Source of the DNA: a virus
Taxonomy: Duplodnaviria > Heunggongvirae > Uroviricota > Caudoviricetes
IMG/VR virus record: IMGVR_UViG_3300001336_000001
Coordinates: 42,836-106,835 of that record
Length of the DNA: 64,000 nucleotides
Strand: one strand, 5' to 3'
Shown here: positions 13,808-17,471 of the stretch, in pieces
How the letters are laid out: each line of letters begins with the position of its first letter
Position numbering within the stretch: the stretch's first letter is position 1
Program-made: the position numbers and the translations under genes
The notes under the pieces: model-generated
What the model was told of the DNA's origin: nothing
Databases searched by the model: none
What the model saw: only the letters and a program-made list of their open reading frames with translations

Positions 13808-13814
13808 AATAGTT

Positions 13815-13829
13815 TATATATAAATATTC
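13815..13829 (-). promoter_or_regulatory. TATATATAAATATTC promoter-like motif
   Basis: Exact 15-mer 7 nt upstream of the ATG at 13807. Confidence 0.45.
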
Positions 13830-13914
13830 AATTTTAAAAATTCTACTCAAAATTGTTTTTGTTTTTATCTGTGGTTATAAATTGAGTTTTGTCTGAACCT
13901 CACCGCACCTGTAC

Positions 13915-14027
13915 ATAACAAGGTGTATATGTAATGTGAGTTTCAGTGGTATATTCAAGTTCTGTGGTTAAGTCAAAGTTAAAGTTAGTGTTTCAAATCT
14001 CACACTACATATACACCCAACCGTTAT
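13915..14027. repeat. PeSL-like intergenic imperfect inverted repeat (ATAACAAGGTGTATATGTAATG ... CACTACATATACACCCAACCGTTAT)
   Basis: About 20-bp complementary arms flank a 65-nt spacer. Related copies lie at 14829..14918, 15529..15624, 16315..16443, 16651..16742, 40913..41037 and 41458..41548. Confidence 0.6.
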
Positions 14028-14109
14028 ATTCAATGCTACGTTTCTGCTTCGTATTAAGTTTCATCGTAGTATTCTTTTTATTTTATTTTTTTTCTCCCAC
14101 CACACAAAA

Positions 14110-14709
14110 TTAATAATCACCAACAATAGCATTTATTGGTTTTTCCAATTCTTTATTATTTATTGAATTAATAATTACTTTTGCACCTTTAATTAAAGCA
14201 CATTCCCATTGGTCTTCACCATACCAAATAAATGAACTAAACCCATAAACCCAATCAATATATTTAGGATTTACATCACCTTCCAAAATAAAAGATTTTC
14301 CAGTTTTCATCATTTCTCTGTTTGGATGTTGTTCACCATAAGCCCCAACACCATCTTCCTCAAAAGACCAATGTTTTCCAATATTATTTACATCTAAATC
14401 GTTTATTGAATTTAACATAATCAATCGGTAAATTGTAACACTATTTTGAGTTTTTAATTCATTATATTTGTCAACATATAAGTCAATCAATTCAATATAT
14501 TTATCTCTTGAATATGATGCGTGAATATCATCGGGGTCTTCATTATATGCATCAAACGCTTCTGCAACATCATCAATATTATCATAAGCATATTTTCTTG
14601 CTGTTTCATAATTTGATAAGAAAGAATCTTGGTTATTATATTCCTTCAACATTTCTTGCTCGTTCAAATATTCACGTATAGTAGTCGCTATAAATTTTCT
14701 TAGTTCCAT
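14110..14709 (-). CDS. leader-family-A protein (MELRKFIATTIREYLNE leader), function unknown
   Basis: Shares the 17-aa N-terminus with 16821, 40315, 15669 and 2187. Confidence 0.5.
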   Translation of the reverse strand: MELRKFIATTIREYLNEQEMLKEYNNQDSFLSNYETARKYAYDNIDDVAEAFDAYNEDPDDIHASYSRDKYIELIDLYVDKYNELKTQNSVTIYRLIMLNSINDLDVNNIGKHWSFEEDGVGAYGEQHPNREMMKTGKSFILEGDVNPKYIDWVYGFSSFIWYGEDQWECALIKGAKVIINSINNKELEKPINAIVGDY

Positions 14710-14728
14710 ATTACTAAATAGTTTATTC

Positions 14729-14743
14729 TATATATAAATATTC
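14729..14743 (-). promoter_or_regulatory. TATATATAAATATTC promoter-like motif
   Basis: 19 nt upstream of the ATG at 14709. Confidence 0.45.
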
Positions 14744-14828
14744 AAATTTTAATTTCTTACCCACAAAAAATAAAACAAAAAGGTTTAGTTCTTCGTATCA
14801 AAGTTTATCGGTTAAATCCGCACTGCAT

Positions 14829-14918
14829 ATAACAGCGTATATAAGAAATGGCACAAAAACATTTGTGCTAACTTTCAACATTCTGCAAGTGCCACTTCTC
14901 ATATACGCAAAACGTTAT
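14829..14918. repeat. PeSL-like intergenic inverted repeat
   Basis: ATAACAGCGTATATAAGAAATGGCAC pairs with GTGCCACTTCTCATATACGCAAAACGTTAT. Confidence 0.55.
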
Positions 14919-14990
14919 GCTCCATGCCTTAGTTCAGCGTTTCAATTTGAGTTTTGTGATAAAAAACAAAAAGAATTTTCCCAACGCACT

Positions 14991-15422
14991 TTAAAGAATA
15001 TCTTTATTTATTATTTTAGCATTATTCACACGTCCTTCCCATAAATCAAACATCGTTCCTTGTTTAGCCAAAGATACTCTCCAAATTTCTATTTCACTCA
15101 TTGGTTCTATTTCATAAATATACATTGGACTATCCGACTTAATTTGTGAAGCCCAATATTTTGCTCTATTATAATCAGATGTTATCGAAATTTTTTTACC
15201 ATCTGATTGTTTAAAGTTTATATTTTCTTGTGGGGTAAGTATATCTCCAATATTTAACTCCGTTCGAGAACCGTGATATAATTTTCCTCCGTTAAGTTCA
15301 TTCCAAGTAAATGATTTACCCATTACCTTAACAACTGATGGGTTTATTTCATTAATATCTTCATTTATAAATTGTTTAAAGTTTTTCACTTTATCAATCA
15401 TTTTTCGTATATCTTTGCTCAT
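14991..15422 (-). CDS. leader-family-B protein with a PARP-like (H-Y-E) ADP-ribosyltransferase domain
   Basis: KLYHGSRTELNIGDILTP resembles the PARP H-G-S segment. A Tyr-rich segment and YIYEIE (candidate catalytic Glu) follow. Confidence 0.5.
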   Translation of the reverse strand: MSKDIRKMIDKVKNFKQFINEDINEINPSVVKVMGKSFTWNELNGGKLYHGSRTELNIGDILTPQENINFKQSDGKKISITSDYNRAKYWASQIKSDSPMYIYEIEPMSEIEIWRVSLAKQGTMFDLWEGRVNNAKIINKDIL

Positions 15423-15427
15423 AGTTT

Positions 15428-15442
15428 TATATATAAATATTC
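15428..15442 (-). promoter_or_regulatory. TATATATAAATATTC promoter-like motif
   Basis: Exact 15-mer upstream of the ATG at 15422. Confidence 0.45.
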
Positions 15443-15528
15443 AGATTTAAAATTTCAATCCTAAAATTCTTTTTGTTTTTCTTTCGTATTCCAAATCAAC
15501 ATTATAGGCAAGAAGTCGGCACGAGAGC

Positions 15529-15624
15529 ATAACACGTGCTATAAGCAAGTTTGCCAACAACATTTGTACTAAATTTGAACATTTCTGCAAGGCAAACCTG
15601 CTCATAGCACCATACGTTATAACC
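15529..15624. repeat. PeSL-like intergenic inverted repeat
   Basis: ATAACACGTGCTATAAGCAAGTTTGCC pairs with GGCAAACCTGCTCATAGCACCATACGTTATAACC. Confidence 0.55.
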
Positions 15625-15668
15625 AATACTACATTATACGTTCTAATTGGTATTTTGTTTCAAAACTT

Positions 15669-16205
15669 TTAAAAATTTTCCACCCCTAAATTAATAATTT
15701 TAGCGGATTTTCCATTATAATAAGGTTCTGGAACAATATATTCAATATCGTGTTTTCCGTAAACTTGATTTGTGATTACAATTAAATCTAAATTTCTCCA
15801 TTCTTCTGCTAAATTTTCAGCATCTTCCTGTTCCATACCACCATATTCAACTAAATCATCAATCATATACGATGTGTCCCCACGTAGTAAAGCATCAAAT
15901 GCTTCTTGTATTCCTAAACTATCAAATCTACTTTTACTCAAATCAAAAATTGCTGGATTTTGTGAAATAATTTTTAATTTATAAACATAATCACCCCAAG
16001 ATGTTTGTGGTATATTACTAAAAAACATACCATCTATTCTCGTTGATGAATTTGGTTTTAATTCTATCTTATCAAAATTAAAGTCATCAATTTTTGAATT
16101 AGTTGAGTGGTATGCTATAAATTCTTTATTAGTGTTAACTTGTTCATTCAAAAACTCTCTAATTGTGGTAGCAATAAATTTGCGTAATTTCATATCTTTG
16201 TTCAT
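15669..16205 (-). CDS. leader-family-A protein with an ART-like (H-Y-E) domain
   Basis: MNKDMKLRKFIATTIREFLNE leader. FIAYHSTN, GMFFSNIP and HDIEYIVPE resemble the H-x-S/T, GIYF and E-Y-I-V motifs of PARP-type ARTs. Confidence 0.45.
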   Translation of the reverse strand: MNKDMKLRKFIATTIREFLNEQVNTNKEFIAYHSTNSKIDDFNFDKIELKPNSSTRIDGMFFSNIPQTSWGDYVYKLKIISQNPAIFDLSKSRFDSLGIQEAFDALLRGDTSYMIDDLVEYGGMEQEDAENLAEEWRNLDLIVITNQVYGKHDIEYIVPEPYYNGKSAKIINLGVENF

Positions 16206-16216
16206 ATATTTTACTT

Positions 16217-16231
16217 TATATATAAATATTC
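16217..16231 (-). promoter_or_regulatory. TATATATAAATATTC promoter-like motif
   Basis: 12 nt upstream of the ATG at 16205. Confidence 0.45.
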
Positions 16232-16314
16232 AATTTTAAAATTTCCATCGCACATTTTTAAAAGTTTTTGTTCTGTGTTTCAATTTAGCATTTGTGGTAA
16301 TTTACCGTACTGGT

Positions 16315-16443
16315 TATAACAAGGTGTATATGTAATGATGGTTGTATCTATAATTTCAACATTTTTGGTTTCTATGAAGTTTAGTGGTTAATCAAAGTTT
16401 AGTTCTTTCTATCCACCACTACATATACACCCAACCGTTATAT
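16315..16443. repeat. PeSL-like intergenic inverted repeat
   Basis: Near-identical to the 40913..41037 copy. Confidence 0.6.
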
Positions 16444-16650
16444 TCAAGTTTTTAAAAATGGTAACGACATCTCTACTAATTTAGGTATTGTATTACCAGC
16501 ATCAAAAACAACATTATATTTTCCATCATCAGACATCATCTTAATAAAGTTGTTCTTTTCTTCTTCGGTCATTTCGTGATATACACCACAAATAATTGTT
16601 GTTTTTTCATTTTCCATATAAAGTTTATTTTAATTTTTAAAAACCTAAAT

Positions 16651-16742
16651 ATAACAAGGTGTATAAGAAAGTTTTTTACAAAGGTAGTATAAATTTCATG
16701 ATTTCCAAATAAAAAACCTTCTCATACACCCAGCCGTTATAT
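16651..16742. repeat. PeSL-like intergenic inverted repeat
   Basis: ATAACAAGGTGTATAAGAAAG pairs with CTTCTCATACACCCAGCCGTTATAT. Confidence 0.5.
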
Positions 16743-16820
16743 GCAATGCTAAGTTTGTGCTTAGTATTAAGTTTTGTGGTTATAATCTTTTTGTTTTATT
16801 TTTCCTCCCACCACACAAAA

Positions 16821-17222
16821 TTAAGAATAAATATTTTTATCACCAATATCCCAAGTACCATCATTATTAATAGATTTTATATTTTGTGGTTTTTTTACAA
16901 CCACCTCATATCCTGCTATTATCCCATCTGAATCATCTTCAATTTTAACATATAACTCCATAAGATATTTTCCATGATTTTTAGCAATATCTTTATATGT
17001 CGTTAAGTAAATGCCTGGTCCATTTGCACCATATTTAGATATTTTAAATACATCAAATTTATTATCTGTACCATGATAAACAACTATTGGATTTCCTTGT
17101 TCATCAACCACTTTACTGTTTCCGAACCATACCCAAAAATTATCATTCAATTTATTTTCAATTTCTTGTTCTTCATTCAAATATTCACGTATAGTAGTTG
17201 CTATAAATTTTCTTAGTTCCAT
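16821..17222 (-). CDS. leader-family-A protein with a PARP/Tpt1-like ART domain
   Basis: VVYHGTDNKFDVF (H-G-T), GPGIYLTTY and YLMELYVKIE motifs. Confidence 0.5.
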   Translation of the reverse strand: MELRKFIATTIREYLNEEQEIENKLNDNFWVWFGNSKVVDEQGNPIVVYHGTDNKFDVFKISKYGANGPGIYLTTYKDIAKNHGKYLMELYVKIEDDSDGIIAGYEVVVKKPQNIKSINNDGTWDIGDKNIYS

Positions 17223-17241
17223 ATTAATAAATAGTTTATTC

Positions 17242-17256
17242 TATATATAAATATTC
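17242..17256 (-). promoter_or_regulatory. TATATATAAATATTC promoter-like motif
   Basis: 20 nt upstream of the ATG at 17222. Confidence 0.45.
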
Positions 17257-17471
17257 AAATTTTAATTTTCCACCCACAAAAAATAAAACAAAAAGGTTTC
17301 GTTCTTCGTAGGTAGTTTAGTGGTTAATTTCCGCACTGCATATAACAAGGTGTATAAAACATAACCTATTATAGTTTAGTGGTTATATCAACGTTTCTAC
17401 TTCGGTTTAACATTTGTTTTTACTGTTTATAACAGCAAATATAATAAATAAAATTTGATTTTACAAATAAT

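Follow-up and report, generated by a model that had tools for sequence, protein, structure and literature searches.

The region at positions 13808-17471 of the window (the whole stretch of 64,000 nucleotides analysed, from a caudoviricete phage) is probably, judging from comparisons between sequences, an array of cassettes belonging to an integron-like platform for gene capture, which comprises the cassettes with their attC-like folded sites, an attI-like site and a recombinase (Table 1). The platform is no canonical integron, since its recombinase has no IntI-specific insertion and points the same way as the cassette genes. The array looks like one run by a Xer-type recombinase encoded at its end. 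A hairpin element is present in this region in five full copies, plus one half copy, all on the minus (coding) strand, and at least eight further copies occur in the window, at 1.6-4.0 kb and 40.9-42.1 kb. The same system is present in many uncultured phages, and we found no account of it in the literature. The phage itself is large and looks lytic.

Table 1. Features of the array and of the other hairpin clusters in the window; core element coordinates are quoted along the minus strand, 5' to 3'.
Feature	Position	Strand	Remarks
Whole block: six cassettes, attI-like site, recombinase	12392..17471	-	missing from related phages
Xer/IntI-clade tyrosine recombinase, 3' end of array	12472..13284	-	Pfam Phage_int_SAM_4 and Phage_integrase
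attI-like junction	13285..13318	-	TAAC (13318-13315) closes last cassette; then recombinase-proximal TATATTATATATGTAATAACCTATAAATAA
Recombinase-nearest cassette gene, leader MSKDIREMIDKVKNFKQ	13400..13807	-	3' UTR ends CATAAC at attI-like junction
Promoter-like motif GAATATTTATATATA	13815..13829	-	identical at 14729-14743, 15428-15442, 16217-16231, 17242-17256, 2613-2627, 40814-40828
attC-like hairpin, 125-nt class	14025-13916	-	covariance model 74.2 bits; fold -30.7 kcal/mol; box 13902-13915 next
Cassette gene, leader MELRKFIATTIREYLNEQ	14110..14709	-	no assigned function
Hairpin, 85-nt class	14916-14830	-	covariance model 71.1 bits; exact box TGTTATATGCAGTGCGG next, 14818-14834
Cassette gene, MSKDIR leader, Arr-like ADP-ribosyltransferase domain	14991..15422	-	Pfam Arr-ms, E = 1.9e-8
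Hairpin	15618-15530	-	covariance model 63.2 bits
Cassette gene, leader MNKDMKLRKFIATTIREFLNEQ	15669..16205	-	module also in contig L211
Hairpin, 125-nt class	16439-16317	-	covariance model 75.0 bits
Small cassette gene, 57 aa	16444..16617	-	without promoter-like motif
Hairpin	16738-16652	-	covariance model 69.2 bits
Cassette gene, MELRKFI leader, ART-PolyVal ADP-ribosyltransferase domain	16821..17222	-	Pfam PF18760, E = 9.9e-15
Truncated element, distal array end	17374-17329	-	part of loop, 3' arm, exact box; covariance model 14.7 bits only
Second cluster, without recombinase (CALIN-like)	1637..3964	-	elements 3964-3842, 3660-3588, 2788-2665, 2159-2034, 1739-1637
Third cluster, without recombinase	40250..42132	-	elements 42132-42029 (weak), 41545-41460, 41036-40914

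The element reads (A)TAACG, a bulge of 3-4 nt, a 20-bp stem, a loop of 10-80 nt and TGTTAT, often followed by TGCAGTGCGG. It spans 64-145 nt, with size classes of ~45, 85 and 125 nt, and its stem (~20-26 bp) holds an invariant TAT/ATA and G·T wobbles around a variable loop. The computations establish both the fold and its strand. Across 109 copies, which come from about 70 phage contigs, 97.7% of the stem cells are paired, 15 of the 26 pairs show compensatory changes, doubly changed cells number 427 (108 in shuffles), and AAC...GTT is invariant in 108-109 of the copies. For nine copies in the window, 97.4% of the cells pair, compared with 75.9% after shuffling and 30-53% after sliding of the partner column; covariance-model E-values are 1e-11 to 1e-14 per copy. 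Two pairs are constantly G·U (109/109 and 108/109 copies), so the coding strand is the folding strand, and the fold is more stable on this strand in 104 of the 109 copies with DNA parameters and in 102 with RNA parameters. No element was found on the plus strand of the window, where all copies share the strand of all genes. The recombinase, too, is encoded on the folding strand, an arrangement shared with integrons, whose intI gene is on the bottom strand of attC. Being on the coding strand, the hairpins are transcribed as well, and may thus have an additional RNA role.

The sequence-only reading had placed an inverted repeat in every spacer, its complementary arms enclosing 60-100 nt. Five of the six spacers do contain a full one, and the sixth (17223-17471) holds only a 3' arm and box (~17374-17331); a second, degenerate 3' arm lies nearby, at ~17420-17445. 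The quoted arms, ATAACAAGGTGTATATGTAATG and CACTACATATACACCCAACCGTTAT, are indeed complementary and show the copies at 13915-14027 and 16317-16441 as read on the plus strand, but what they enclose is about 30-80 nt. The remaining copies differ from these in stem sequence, yet their arms stay complementary. Repeats also occur, as proposed, at 2631-2877 and 40795-41560, and we found more in the remaining elements of the second cluster and, weakly, at the start of the third. The arrays of these two clusters end at TAAC (1412-1409 and 40253-40250), and in three elements of the second the start codon of an ORF falls within the loop.

The cassette unit has a median of 430 bp, and its ORF is co-oriented in 228 of 244 units. 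Two of the cassette genes carry ADP-ribosyltransferase-like cargo, and N-terminal leaders are shared. The box CCGCACTGCATATAACA (the reverse complement of TGTTATATGCAGTGCGG), said to be usually present, has nine matches at ≤3 mismatches where 2.7 are expected. The motif reported ahead of the next gene, TATATATAAATATTC (reverse complement GAATATTTATATATA), was likewise recovered in seven exact copies, each just upstream of a leader-bearing gene and 10-25 nt ahead of the ATG; at ≤2 mismatches it has 10 matches against 2.5 expected, a number reached in none of 100 shuffles. This promoter-like motif lies ~100 nt from the stem.

The tyrosine recombinase, overlooked in the sequence-only reading, has 270 aa if read from the TTG at 13284, the likely start being an ATG at 13278. 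It scores 176.9 bits with the NCBIfam model XerA_Arch and 151.7 bits with that of the integron integrase (TIGR02249), both under the cut-offs; its best PDB match is XerA (4a8e), and VchIntIA (2a3v) aligns to it in two pieces, ~48 aa of IntI being missing. The IntI-specific insertion contacts the extrahelical bases of attC. Its absence, together with the sub-cut-off integrase scores, counts against the integron reading.

The architecture of recombinase, array and attI-like site, and its polarity, emerged from two sets of loci. A recombinase homologue occurs in 20 of the 120 loci fetched by a 15-mer of the element, and in all 20 it is just downstream of the array and co-oriented with it. Among 80 contigs fetched by the recombinase protein alone, all 132 covariance-model matches and 283 of the 284 matches of our own finder are upstream and co-oriented, and no element was found in the 359 kb of sequence lying downstream of the recombinase in these loci. 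Of the 48 recombinase loci whose upstream sequence exceeds 3 kb, 46 have an array. Over the 2.5 kb that follow the recombinase, 16 loci share no homology with one another, one pair excepted, so that their contexts are independent. Between array and recombinase, 30-40 nt before the start codon, the junction TAAC followed by TATTATATATA is conserved in 61 of 63 loci, with the consensus TAAC followed by TAT(T/A)ATATATA and variable sequence on its left side. It is exactly at TAAC that homology ends: 21 of 51 left ends gather there and none falls between -3 and +42. One and the same attI-like site is found next to different first cassettes, and one cassette end next to different attI types; e.g., the 3' UTR module of gene 13400..13807 abuts another attI type in contig L095. 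The conserved sequence past TAAC could be just the recombinase promoter and 5' UTR.

Comparison with related phages reveals a turnover of cassettes at the hairpin bases, where homology between them stops, and bears out the earlier suggestion of a recombinationally plastic cargo locus organised in cassettes. The whole block is missing in relatives whose RNase R is 68% identical; in these (L121-L128), SmpB and then the sigma factor come next after the homologue of gene 17472-17939. Phages 96% identical to one another part exactly at the start of their arrays. Of the breakpoint ends, 31 fall no further than 6 nt from the 5' base AACG and 13 are at the 3' base TGTTA, counts that are small and partly non-independent, against ~0.5 expected by chance as estimated from the total length searched. 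A gene keeps its upstream hairpin in seven pairs and its downstream hairpin in none. Positions 15615-16330 are 90% identical to L211, the common module running from ...TATACACCTTGTTAT to ATAACG, and the hairpin interiors flanking it differ on both sides, as they do in both of the two best-resolved shared cassettes. These differing interiors and the 13 ends at the 3' base imply that a single crossover at the 5' base cannot explain everything; the short conserved bases must also be places of homologous exchange or template switching.

Could the hairpins instead act as RNA? They might be elements of the 3' or 5' UTR of the cassette mRNAs, serving for double-strand-specific processing (of RNase III type), for 3' stabilisation or as translational operators, with gene shuffling a by-product of homologous recombination at these conserved sequences and the recombinase having another purpose such as lysogeny or dimer resolution. 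A ~26 bp stem with an asymmetric bulge and invariant G·U pairs resembles phage RNase III sites, the RNA fold prefers the coding strand by 7.4 kcal/mol, and 61 of 239 cassettes have their start codon in the loop and a 3' arm that is coding sequence. A purely RNA-level function would account equally well for the G·U signature and for the constant location on the coding strand. Yet this account, which we consider unlikely, leaves unexplained both the association of nearly all elements with one recombinase family across unrelated contexts and a recombinase unit starting exactly at the TAAC of a hairpin start; no U tract or other intrinsic-terminator feature was found at the hairpins (one site in a terminator scan, 0.9 expected), no Rfam family matches them, and an RNA role could coexist with one in DNA. 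A spread of MITE- or PATE-like palindromes by a transposase, e.g. one related to the window's TnpB-bearing IS element, is far less plausible still. The repeats are numerous, palindromic and fall into size classes, and a tnpB gene lies at 29868-31049, but it is 12 kb away and is not co-fetched with arrays, and no Y1 TnpA was found among the ORFs scanned. Moreover, elements are strictly oriented with the genes (on both strands in 0/130 loci) and regularly spaced, one per small gene, and their stems are diverse and covarying rather than near-identical.

The sequence-only reading had likened the spacers to the PeSL elements of T4-type phages, and in a system of that kind the promoter and stem-loop repeats would be portable homology for general phage recombination only. 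The likeness holds for the outcome: here too, stem-loops and promoter-like motifs recur between small ORFan accessory genes in hyperplastic regions, and indels between close relatives map to them. A 5' module of ~195 nt (3' arm, box, motif and leader) is 80-91% identical across many contigs, enough for homologous exchange, and reassortment between hairpin interiors and gene modules occurs at both bases. PeSLs, however, combine in compact form a sigma-70 early promoter with a G/C-rich terminator stem-loop; general homologous recombination is what shuffles them, no dedicated recombinase having been identified (PMC2839356, PMC4122927). Their terminators are short and conserved in sequence, whereas the stems here are 26 bp long, covary, enclose a large loop and are not G/C-rich terminators, and the array has a physical and directional tie to a tyrosine recombinase, accompanied by an attI-like junction that is conserved. 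The motif is confined to leader-type cassettes (seven exact copies for at least 13 elements), and breakpoints fall sharply at TAAC, not all along the 195-nt module. The specific analogy is thus not supported, and we regard such a system as improbable here.

The integron-like gene-capture platform resembles bacterial integrons in 1) a tyrosine recombinase adjoining a co-oriented array of small, mostly single-ORF cassettes; 2) variable imperfect inverted repeats (64-145 nt, 57-141 for attC) with AAC...GTT as only invariant core; 3) conservation of structure, not sequence; 4) the folding strand encoding the recombinase; 5) a recombinase-proximal primary site that has just the core in common with the hairpins; and 6) recombinase-less clusters elsewhere in the genome, as in CALINs. 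It differs from them in its XerA/XerC-like recombinase of 266-270 aa, in ORFs that lie on the folding strand instead of being divergent and Pc-driven, in the many cassettes with their own promoter-like motif or an ORF start inside the loop, in an asymmetry due to a 3-nt bulge and to fixed G·T wobbles instead of canonical extrahelical bases, in the core (TAACG/TGTTA, not RYYYAAC/GTTRRRY) and in its carrier. At CTX-phi attP, a Xer-type tyrosine recombinase acts on a hairpin of one DNA strand. On Acinetobacter plasmids, a Xer-type recombinase moves discrete gene modules that have its pdif sites as their boundaries (PMC7399989). Both recall the present system, but they use host XerCD and 28-bp dif-like cores, with one site per element in CTX-phi and double-stranded sites of alternating orientation in pdif, and have neither arrays of covarying long hairpins nor an attI-like site beside an element-encoded recombinase. 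Integron components were described in phage genomes by Qi et al. 2023, who used IntegronFinder and HattCI to find canonical attC and IntI, with 2-3 sites per phage, including sites in virulent phages such as a Polaribacter phage, and no integrase in virulent phages (PMC9892861). The hairpin family and Xer-like recombinase of the present locus are not described there.

From evidence that is all comparative, we infer recombination itself along the following lines. A cassette would start with a site able to fold as a single strand, from (A)TAACG to TGTTAT, continue with an optional promoter-like motif and one small ORF, and end with TAAC. The recombinase would act on the hairpin sites, probably with single-stranded DNA as its substrate, and exchange strands at or next to TAAC, the 5' base of the folded hairpin, as the putative point of cleavage. 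Cassettes would be excised as circles and inserted at the attI-like site, between TAAC and TATTATATATA. If this is true, phages could swap accessory genes, including ADP-ribosyltransferase-like cargo.

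Six small minus-strand genes occupy positions 13808-17471, and the sequence-only reading had placed a long imperfect inverted repeat in every spacer between them; this holds for five of the six spacers, the sixth having the 3' arm only. An initial naive search for TAAC...GTTA folds proved too noisy, so a stricter pattern and a covariance model built from nine window copies (R1) were used instead. The stricter pattern finds ten window copies, every one of them on the minus strand, and R1 recovers the window copies at E = 1e-11 to 1e-14, with some weaker copies (see the table). 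Read along the minus strand, the element consists of (A)TAACG, a bulge of 3-4 nt (mostly GTT), a 20-bp stem, a loop of 10-80 nt and TGTTAT, frequently followed by an (A)TGCAGTGCGG box. Among the nine copies of the window, pairing holds for 97.4% of cells in paired columns and compensatory changes occur in 14 of 26 pairs, with shuffled and slid controls far lower; in 109 copies from about 70 contigs, the values are 97.7% and 15 covarying pairs of 26, and both sides are changed in 427 cells vs 108 in shuffles. Lengths span 64-145 nt in the element, while AACG, a TAT/ATA triplet of the stem and TGTTA are invariant in the 109 copies and the AAC and GTT core is kept in 108-109 of them. Two stem pairs are G·U in 109 and 108 of the 109 copies, and two further pairs usually are; because these would be A·C mismatches on the other strand, the coding strand is the better folder, as computed for 104 copies with DNA parameters and 102 with RNA parameters. 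A motif, TTAACCAC(A/T)AAACTT, recurs in the loops of hairpins of the 125-nt class and again 10-20 nt past the TGCAGTGCGG box in spacers.

Immediately beside this array, 115 nt downstream of its last cassette gene, lies a gene that is absent from the sequence-only reading and encodes a tyrosine recombinase. The protein has an N-terminal Phage_int_SAM_4 domain and a catalytic Phage_integrase domain, and the catalytic R, K, HxxR, H and Y are present, as judged by eye from an alignment to solved structures. Its top model is XerA_Arch ('tyrosine recombinase/integron integrase'), followed by an integron-integrase model, each below its cut-off; it scores 151.7 bits on TIGR02249 (cut-off 265) and 94.6 on PRK15417 (cut-off 435). 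Among solved structures, XerA aligns with it end to end and VchIntIA (2a3v) in two pieces only (query 21-182 to 16-181; query 213-269 to 260-316), and in this alignment about 48 IntI residues, the IntI-specific insertion, have no counterpart; the recombinase is therefore not a canonical IntI. The family comprises at least 4,699 protein clusters at E <= 1e-30, is uniform in length among the best 120 (266-268 aa) and carries the automatic name 'XerD' only. Among isolates, the nearest recombinase by protein is that of Cellulophaga phage Ingeline (39% identical).

The association between element and recombinase extends far beyond the window. An exact 15-mer from the 3' arm of the element retrieves at least 120 viral loci; R1 has about 340 matches in the 120 listed, weak opposite-strand echoes included, and our own finder identifies 334 elements in the viral loci fetched with the 15-mer, none of which has elements on both strands. 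Recombinase homologues are by far the commonest window protein in these loci (20 of the 120 listed), and all 20 lie just 3' of the last element and share its strand. The reciprocal and unbiased test, on 80 loci fetched by the recombinase protein, gave the same arrangement: all 132 strong R1 matches are upstream and co-oriented, and our finder places 283 elements upstream in the same orientation and a single one upstream in the opposite orientation, while 359 kb of downstream sequence contain none. An array is present in 46 of the 48 protein-fetched loci that have more than 3 kb of upstream sequence, and the last element precedes the recombinase by a median of 364 nt, i.e., one cassette. The 2.5 kb 3' of the recombinase are unrelated among 16 loci, one pair excepted, and the closest homologue (90% identity) has different neighbours, its contigs beginning 92 nt upstream of the gene; synteny is therefore not what holds the unit of array and recombinase together.

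The junction between array and recombinase resembles an attI site. TAAC directly followed by TAT(T/A)ATATATA occurs 30-40 nt before the recombinase start codon in 61 of 63 loci, with variable sequence resembling cassette 3' ends to the left of the TAAC; two divergent recombinases (42-47% identical) have other sequence after it. Among the HSPs covering the recombinase gene, 21 of 51 end at TAAC and none between -3 and +42. One attI type is found with various first cassettes, and one cassette end with various attI types. Junctions inside the array join TAAC to the G of a hairpin and the last junction joins TAAC to the T of the attI-like site, as expected if circular cassettes insert there; in the mechanism that we propose, such cassettes would enter the attI-like site by a crossover at or beside TAAC. 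We infer from these sequence comparisons that the recombinase would recombine DNA at the hairpin sites.

Features of the window and their coordinates
Feature	Position in the window	Remarks
Sigma-70-type factor	11516-12391	
Tyrosine recombinase	12472-13284	
attI-like junction (putative)	TAAC 13318-13315	...TGTACATAAC before the junction, TATATTATATATGTAATAACC after it
Recombinase-less clusters	1.6-4.0 kb; 40.3-42.1 kb	
Weaker R1 copies	3660-3588; 1739-1637; 42132-42029	
Copies with ORF start in the loop	2159-2034; 1739-1637; 3964-3842; 42132-42029	
Hairpins with TTAACCAC(A/T)AAACTT in the loop	13880-14050; 16280-16465	125-nt class
Leader families	13400-17222; 2187-2630; 40315-40794	
Array-end small gene sites	1214-1375; 39926-40216; 4124-4267	
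RNase R-like gene	18329-19879	cold-shock and RNB domains of RNase R-like function; 516 aa
ORF matching the C-terminal S1 part of RNase R	17936-18322	128 aa; separate, downstream of the RNase R-like gene
tRNA cluster	27463-29148	adjoins the TnpB gene
TnpB, full-length	29868-31049	IS200/IS605-type RNA-guided endonuclease; 346.5 bits on NF040570

Elements come in three size classes, of about 45, 85 and 125 nt, and cassette units, measured from one element to the next, have a median of 430 bp, with the longest ORF co-oriented in 228 of 244. The ORF starts within the hairpin loop in 61 of 239 units, so that the hairpin, whether a recombination or a structure site, reaches into the 5' part of the coding sequence; the 3' arm then encodes L-x-I-x-x-V in one fixed frame (e.g., LNISDVS and LGIGAVS). 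Both recombinase-less arrays terminate at TAAC, after which come TAATG.ATA...ACTTTTAATTGTATAAAAAATG and a copy of one small gene (MKIIENQEDNHTIK...), and a third small ORF shares the C-terminus of that gene (...INKILN(K/R)INFDY). These array ends may be secondary insertion sites or array-end modules.

Five of the six genes within 13808-17471 begin with a leader, either MELRKFIATTIREYLNE or MSKDIR.MIDKVKNFKQ. The box and the GAATATTTATATATA motif already pointed out from the sequence alone are real and non-random. GAATATTTATATATA is confined to leader-bearing genes and is no general phage promoter; it lies about 90-110 nt from the hairpin, in leader-type cassettes only, and seven window cassettes have a promoter-like motif of their own. 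Scanning the window with the sigma-70 promoter consensus, which may not be the promoter type of the host, returned 44 sites vs 42 expected, again no more than in shuffles. The two leader families, M(E/N)..LRKFIATTIREYLNE and MS(K/E)DIR.MIDKVKNFKQF, are fused to unrelated C-terminal domains and recur in other loci (L017, L022, L041, L067, L075, L079, L080 and L115), where a 5' module of about 195 nt, made of the hairpin 3' arm, the upstream motif and the leader, is 80-91% identical across contigs. Such sharing suggests in-frame swapping of effector bodies, or a common targeting signal. The cargo includes two ADP-ribosyltransferase-like domains and further matches to ParB_N (weak), DpnI_C (weak) and YopX protein; we infer that the cargo genes are effectors and the leaders targeting signals.

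Comparison with related phages agrees with the idea that cassettes are gained and lost at the hairpin boundaries. Eight relatives, with RNase R about 68% identical, share the gene order RNase R, S1-domain gene, homologue of 17472-17939, SmpB and sigma factor; the 12392-17471 block is absent from them, and their arrays are placed elsewhere. In phages 96% identical to one another, homology stops exactly at array starts. A cassette that is 99.6% identical between two compared contigs, L125 and L124, is limited precisely by TGTTAT and ATAACGT, with flanking hairpin interiors that differ on both sides, and the same boundaries delimit the 90% identity between window 15615-16330 and contig L211. At >=93% identity, 31 of 155 unique HSP ends are 6 nt or less from the 5' base AACG and 13 are at the 3' base, where chance would give an estimated 0.5 or so. 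Shared gene modules that differ at a single flank always differ at the downstream hairpin (7 pairs vs 0; 3 vs 0 when non-redundant), these breakpoint and flank counts being small and partly non-independent. The 3'-base breakpoints and the independently reassorting hairpin interiors show a further process at work at the short conserved bases, either homologous exchange or template switching, and ordinary recombination would find enough conserved sequence in both the 195-nt 5' module and a shared 3' UTR module. In contigs L121-L128, SmpB sits between the homologue of 17472-17939 and the sigma factor, exactly at the position of the cassette block in the window (in L125 at 13944-14420; PF01668, E = 2.7e-53). 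The split RNase R-like arrangement is also kept in relatives, with about 1.1 kb between the two ORFs.

Several known systems could be invoked to explain such a locus. The outcome is similar to that of the promoter-early stem-loop (PeSL) units of T4-type phages, to which the sequence-only reading had likened it, but PeSL units are defined by a G/C-rich terminator, conservation of sequence and general recombination free of a recombinase, on which the analogy breaks down, and by a sigma-70-like early promoter compactly joined to the stem-loop, on which it may break down as well. The PeSL stem is a G/C-rich terminator, whereas the 26-bp stem is here A/U-rich and apparently no terminator: no U tract follows it on the 3' side (median of 3-4 T in the next 13 nt), and the intrinsic-terminator consensus scan gave one site vs 0.9 expected, the level of shuffles. 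The phage arrays also have a dedicated tyrosine recombinase and a fixed polarity, whereas PeSL units rely on general recombination. At gathering thresholds, Rfam matches only tRNAs in the whole window; a permissive scan of 13300-17600 adds a single chance miRNA match, and the element fits no known RNA family. Since the hairpins are transcribed, they may have an RNA function, which could coexist with a DNA function. Xer/dif (pdif) modules, for their part, employ host XerCD at 28-bp double-stranded XerC-spacer-XerD sites of alternating orientation, whereas the phage sites are long hairpins and their recombinase is element-encoded; double-stranded dif-like arms were rejected because within each copy one arm covaries with the other, and a protein-binding site in duplex DNA has no need of this. 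An origin of the hairpins from MITE/TnpB was rejected on their strict orientation and covarying stems.

The closest parallel is with integrons, seen as an invention of bacteria, and since recently also of archaea, that depends on the specialised IntI, whose family has an additional domain, an insertion of ~35-50 aa between catalytic patches. In the classical integron, intI is on the bottom (folding) strand of attC, so that this strand reads array, attI, intI; recombination involves the folded bottom strand, cleaved between AA and C, and the cassettes are promoterless, point away from intI and are expressed from the common promoter Pc. The phage locus shares with it the strand order; an AAC/GTT core in elements of variable length that conserve structure over sequence; single-ORF cassettes and the presence of recombinase-less clusters; and a putative attI-like site beside the recombinase, recognised by comparison and unrelated in sequence to known attI sites. 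That the phage system, too, would recombine a folded bottom strand cleaved between AA and C has indirect support in the better folding of the recombinase-encoding strand and in the junctions at TAAC. The phage locus differs in that the recombinase is without the IntI insertion; cassette ORFs are on the folding strand, co-oriented with the recombinase, and have their own promoter-like motifs or loop starts; asymmetry is provided by the bulge and G·T wobbles, with the canonical extrahelical bases unmatched; and the full RYYYAAC/GTTRRRY consensus is unmatched as well. A canonical integron was rejected for the missing IntI insertion, and the phage locus is best read as an integron-like platform outside the integron family as defined. 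A published account of integrons in phages deals with canonical attC and IntI components (PMC9892861). In openly searchable full text, we found no description of the present hairpin-recombinase system.

The window is a piece of a large phage genome. All its sizeable ORFs are on the minus strand, it has 19 tRNA genes, and phage DNA-transfer, RNA-ligase and nucleotidyltransferase families are among its PHROG matches. At the DNA level no sequenced phage is near: a megablast search of 50,697 phage records with 12400-19900 returned nothing. Bacteroidota are probably the hosts of these large uncultured phages. Scanning GTDB genomes with the element 15-mer gave mostly single chance matches, and the few true elements are in Bacteroidota or in contigs that are probably mis-binned; the scan thus says little about hosts and nothing about the mechanism. 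True elements of 44-71 bits occur in the Bacteroidota records L189 (a Crocinitomicaceae MAG contig), L208 (Draconibacterium, a 3.97-Mb contig), L202 (Aquimarina) and L136; in L189, the array is followed by a 40% identical recombinase on the opposite strand, in contrast to all viral loci. Metagenomic contigs often begin less than 200 nt upstream of the recombinase (L331, L332, L253, L269, L290, L293, L294, L316 and L318). The repeated hairpin arrays seem to interrupt assembly, so that they are probably under-represented in assembled data.

A wider reading, advanced as tentative and somewhat doubtful, is that large uncultured phages have a gene-capture system in which the integron principle was invented anew or is shared from ancient times, with a plain Xer-like recombinase, sites that are hairpins of the coding strand, and a hairpin doubling as DNA site and RNA element near the cassette start; co-infecting phages could in this way exchange effector cassettes ready for expression, among them ADP-ribosyltransferases whose shared N-terminal leader might direct them to the virion. 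If so, gene capture at folded hairpins would not need the IntI insertion, since a widespread phage analogue would achieve it with an ordinary Xer-like recombinase, and the hyperplastic accessory regions of large phages would have a concrete mechanism. The recombinase and the covariance model would together be a marker for cargo discovery, and the pair of recombinase and site might be a new one for engineering. Phages would then hold a large catalogue of mobile cargo genes, most of them without known function, some of which are likely to be host-takeover or anti-defence effectors.
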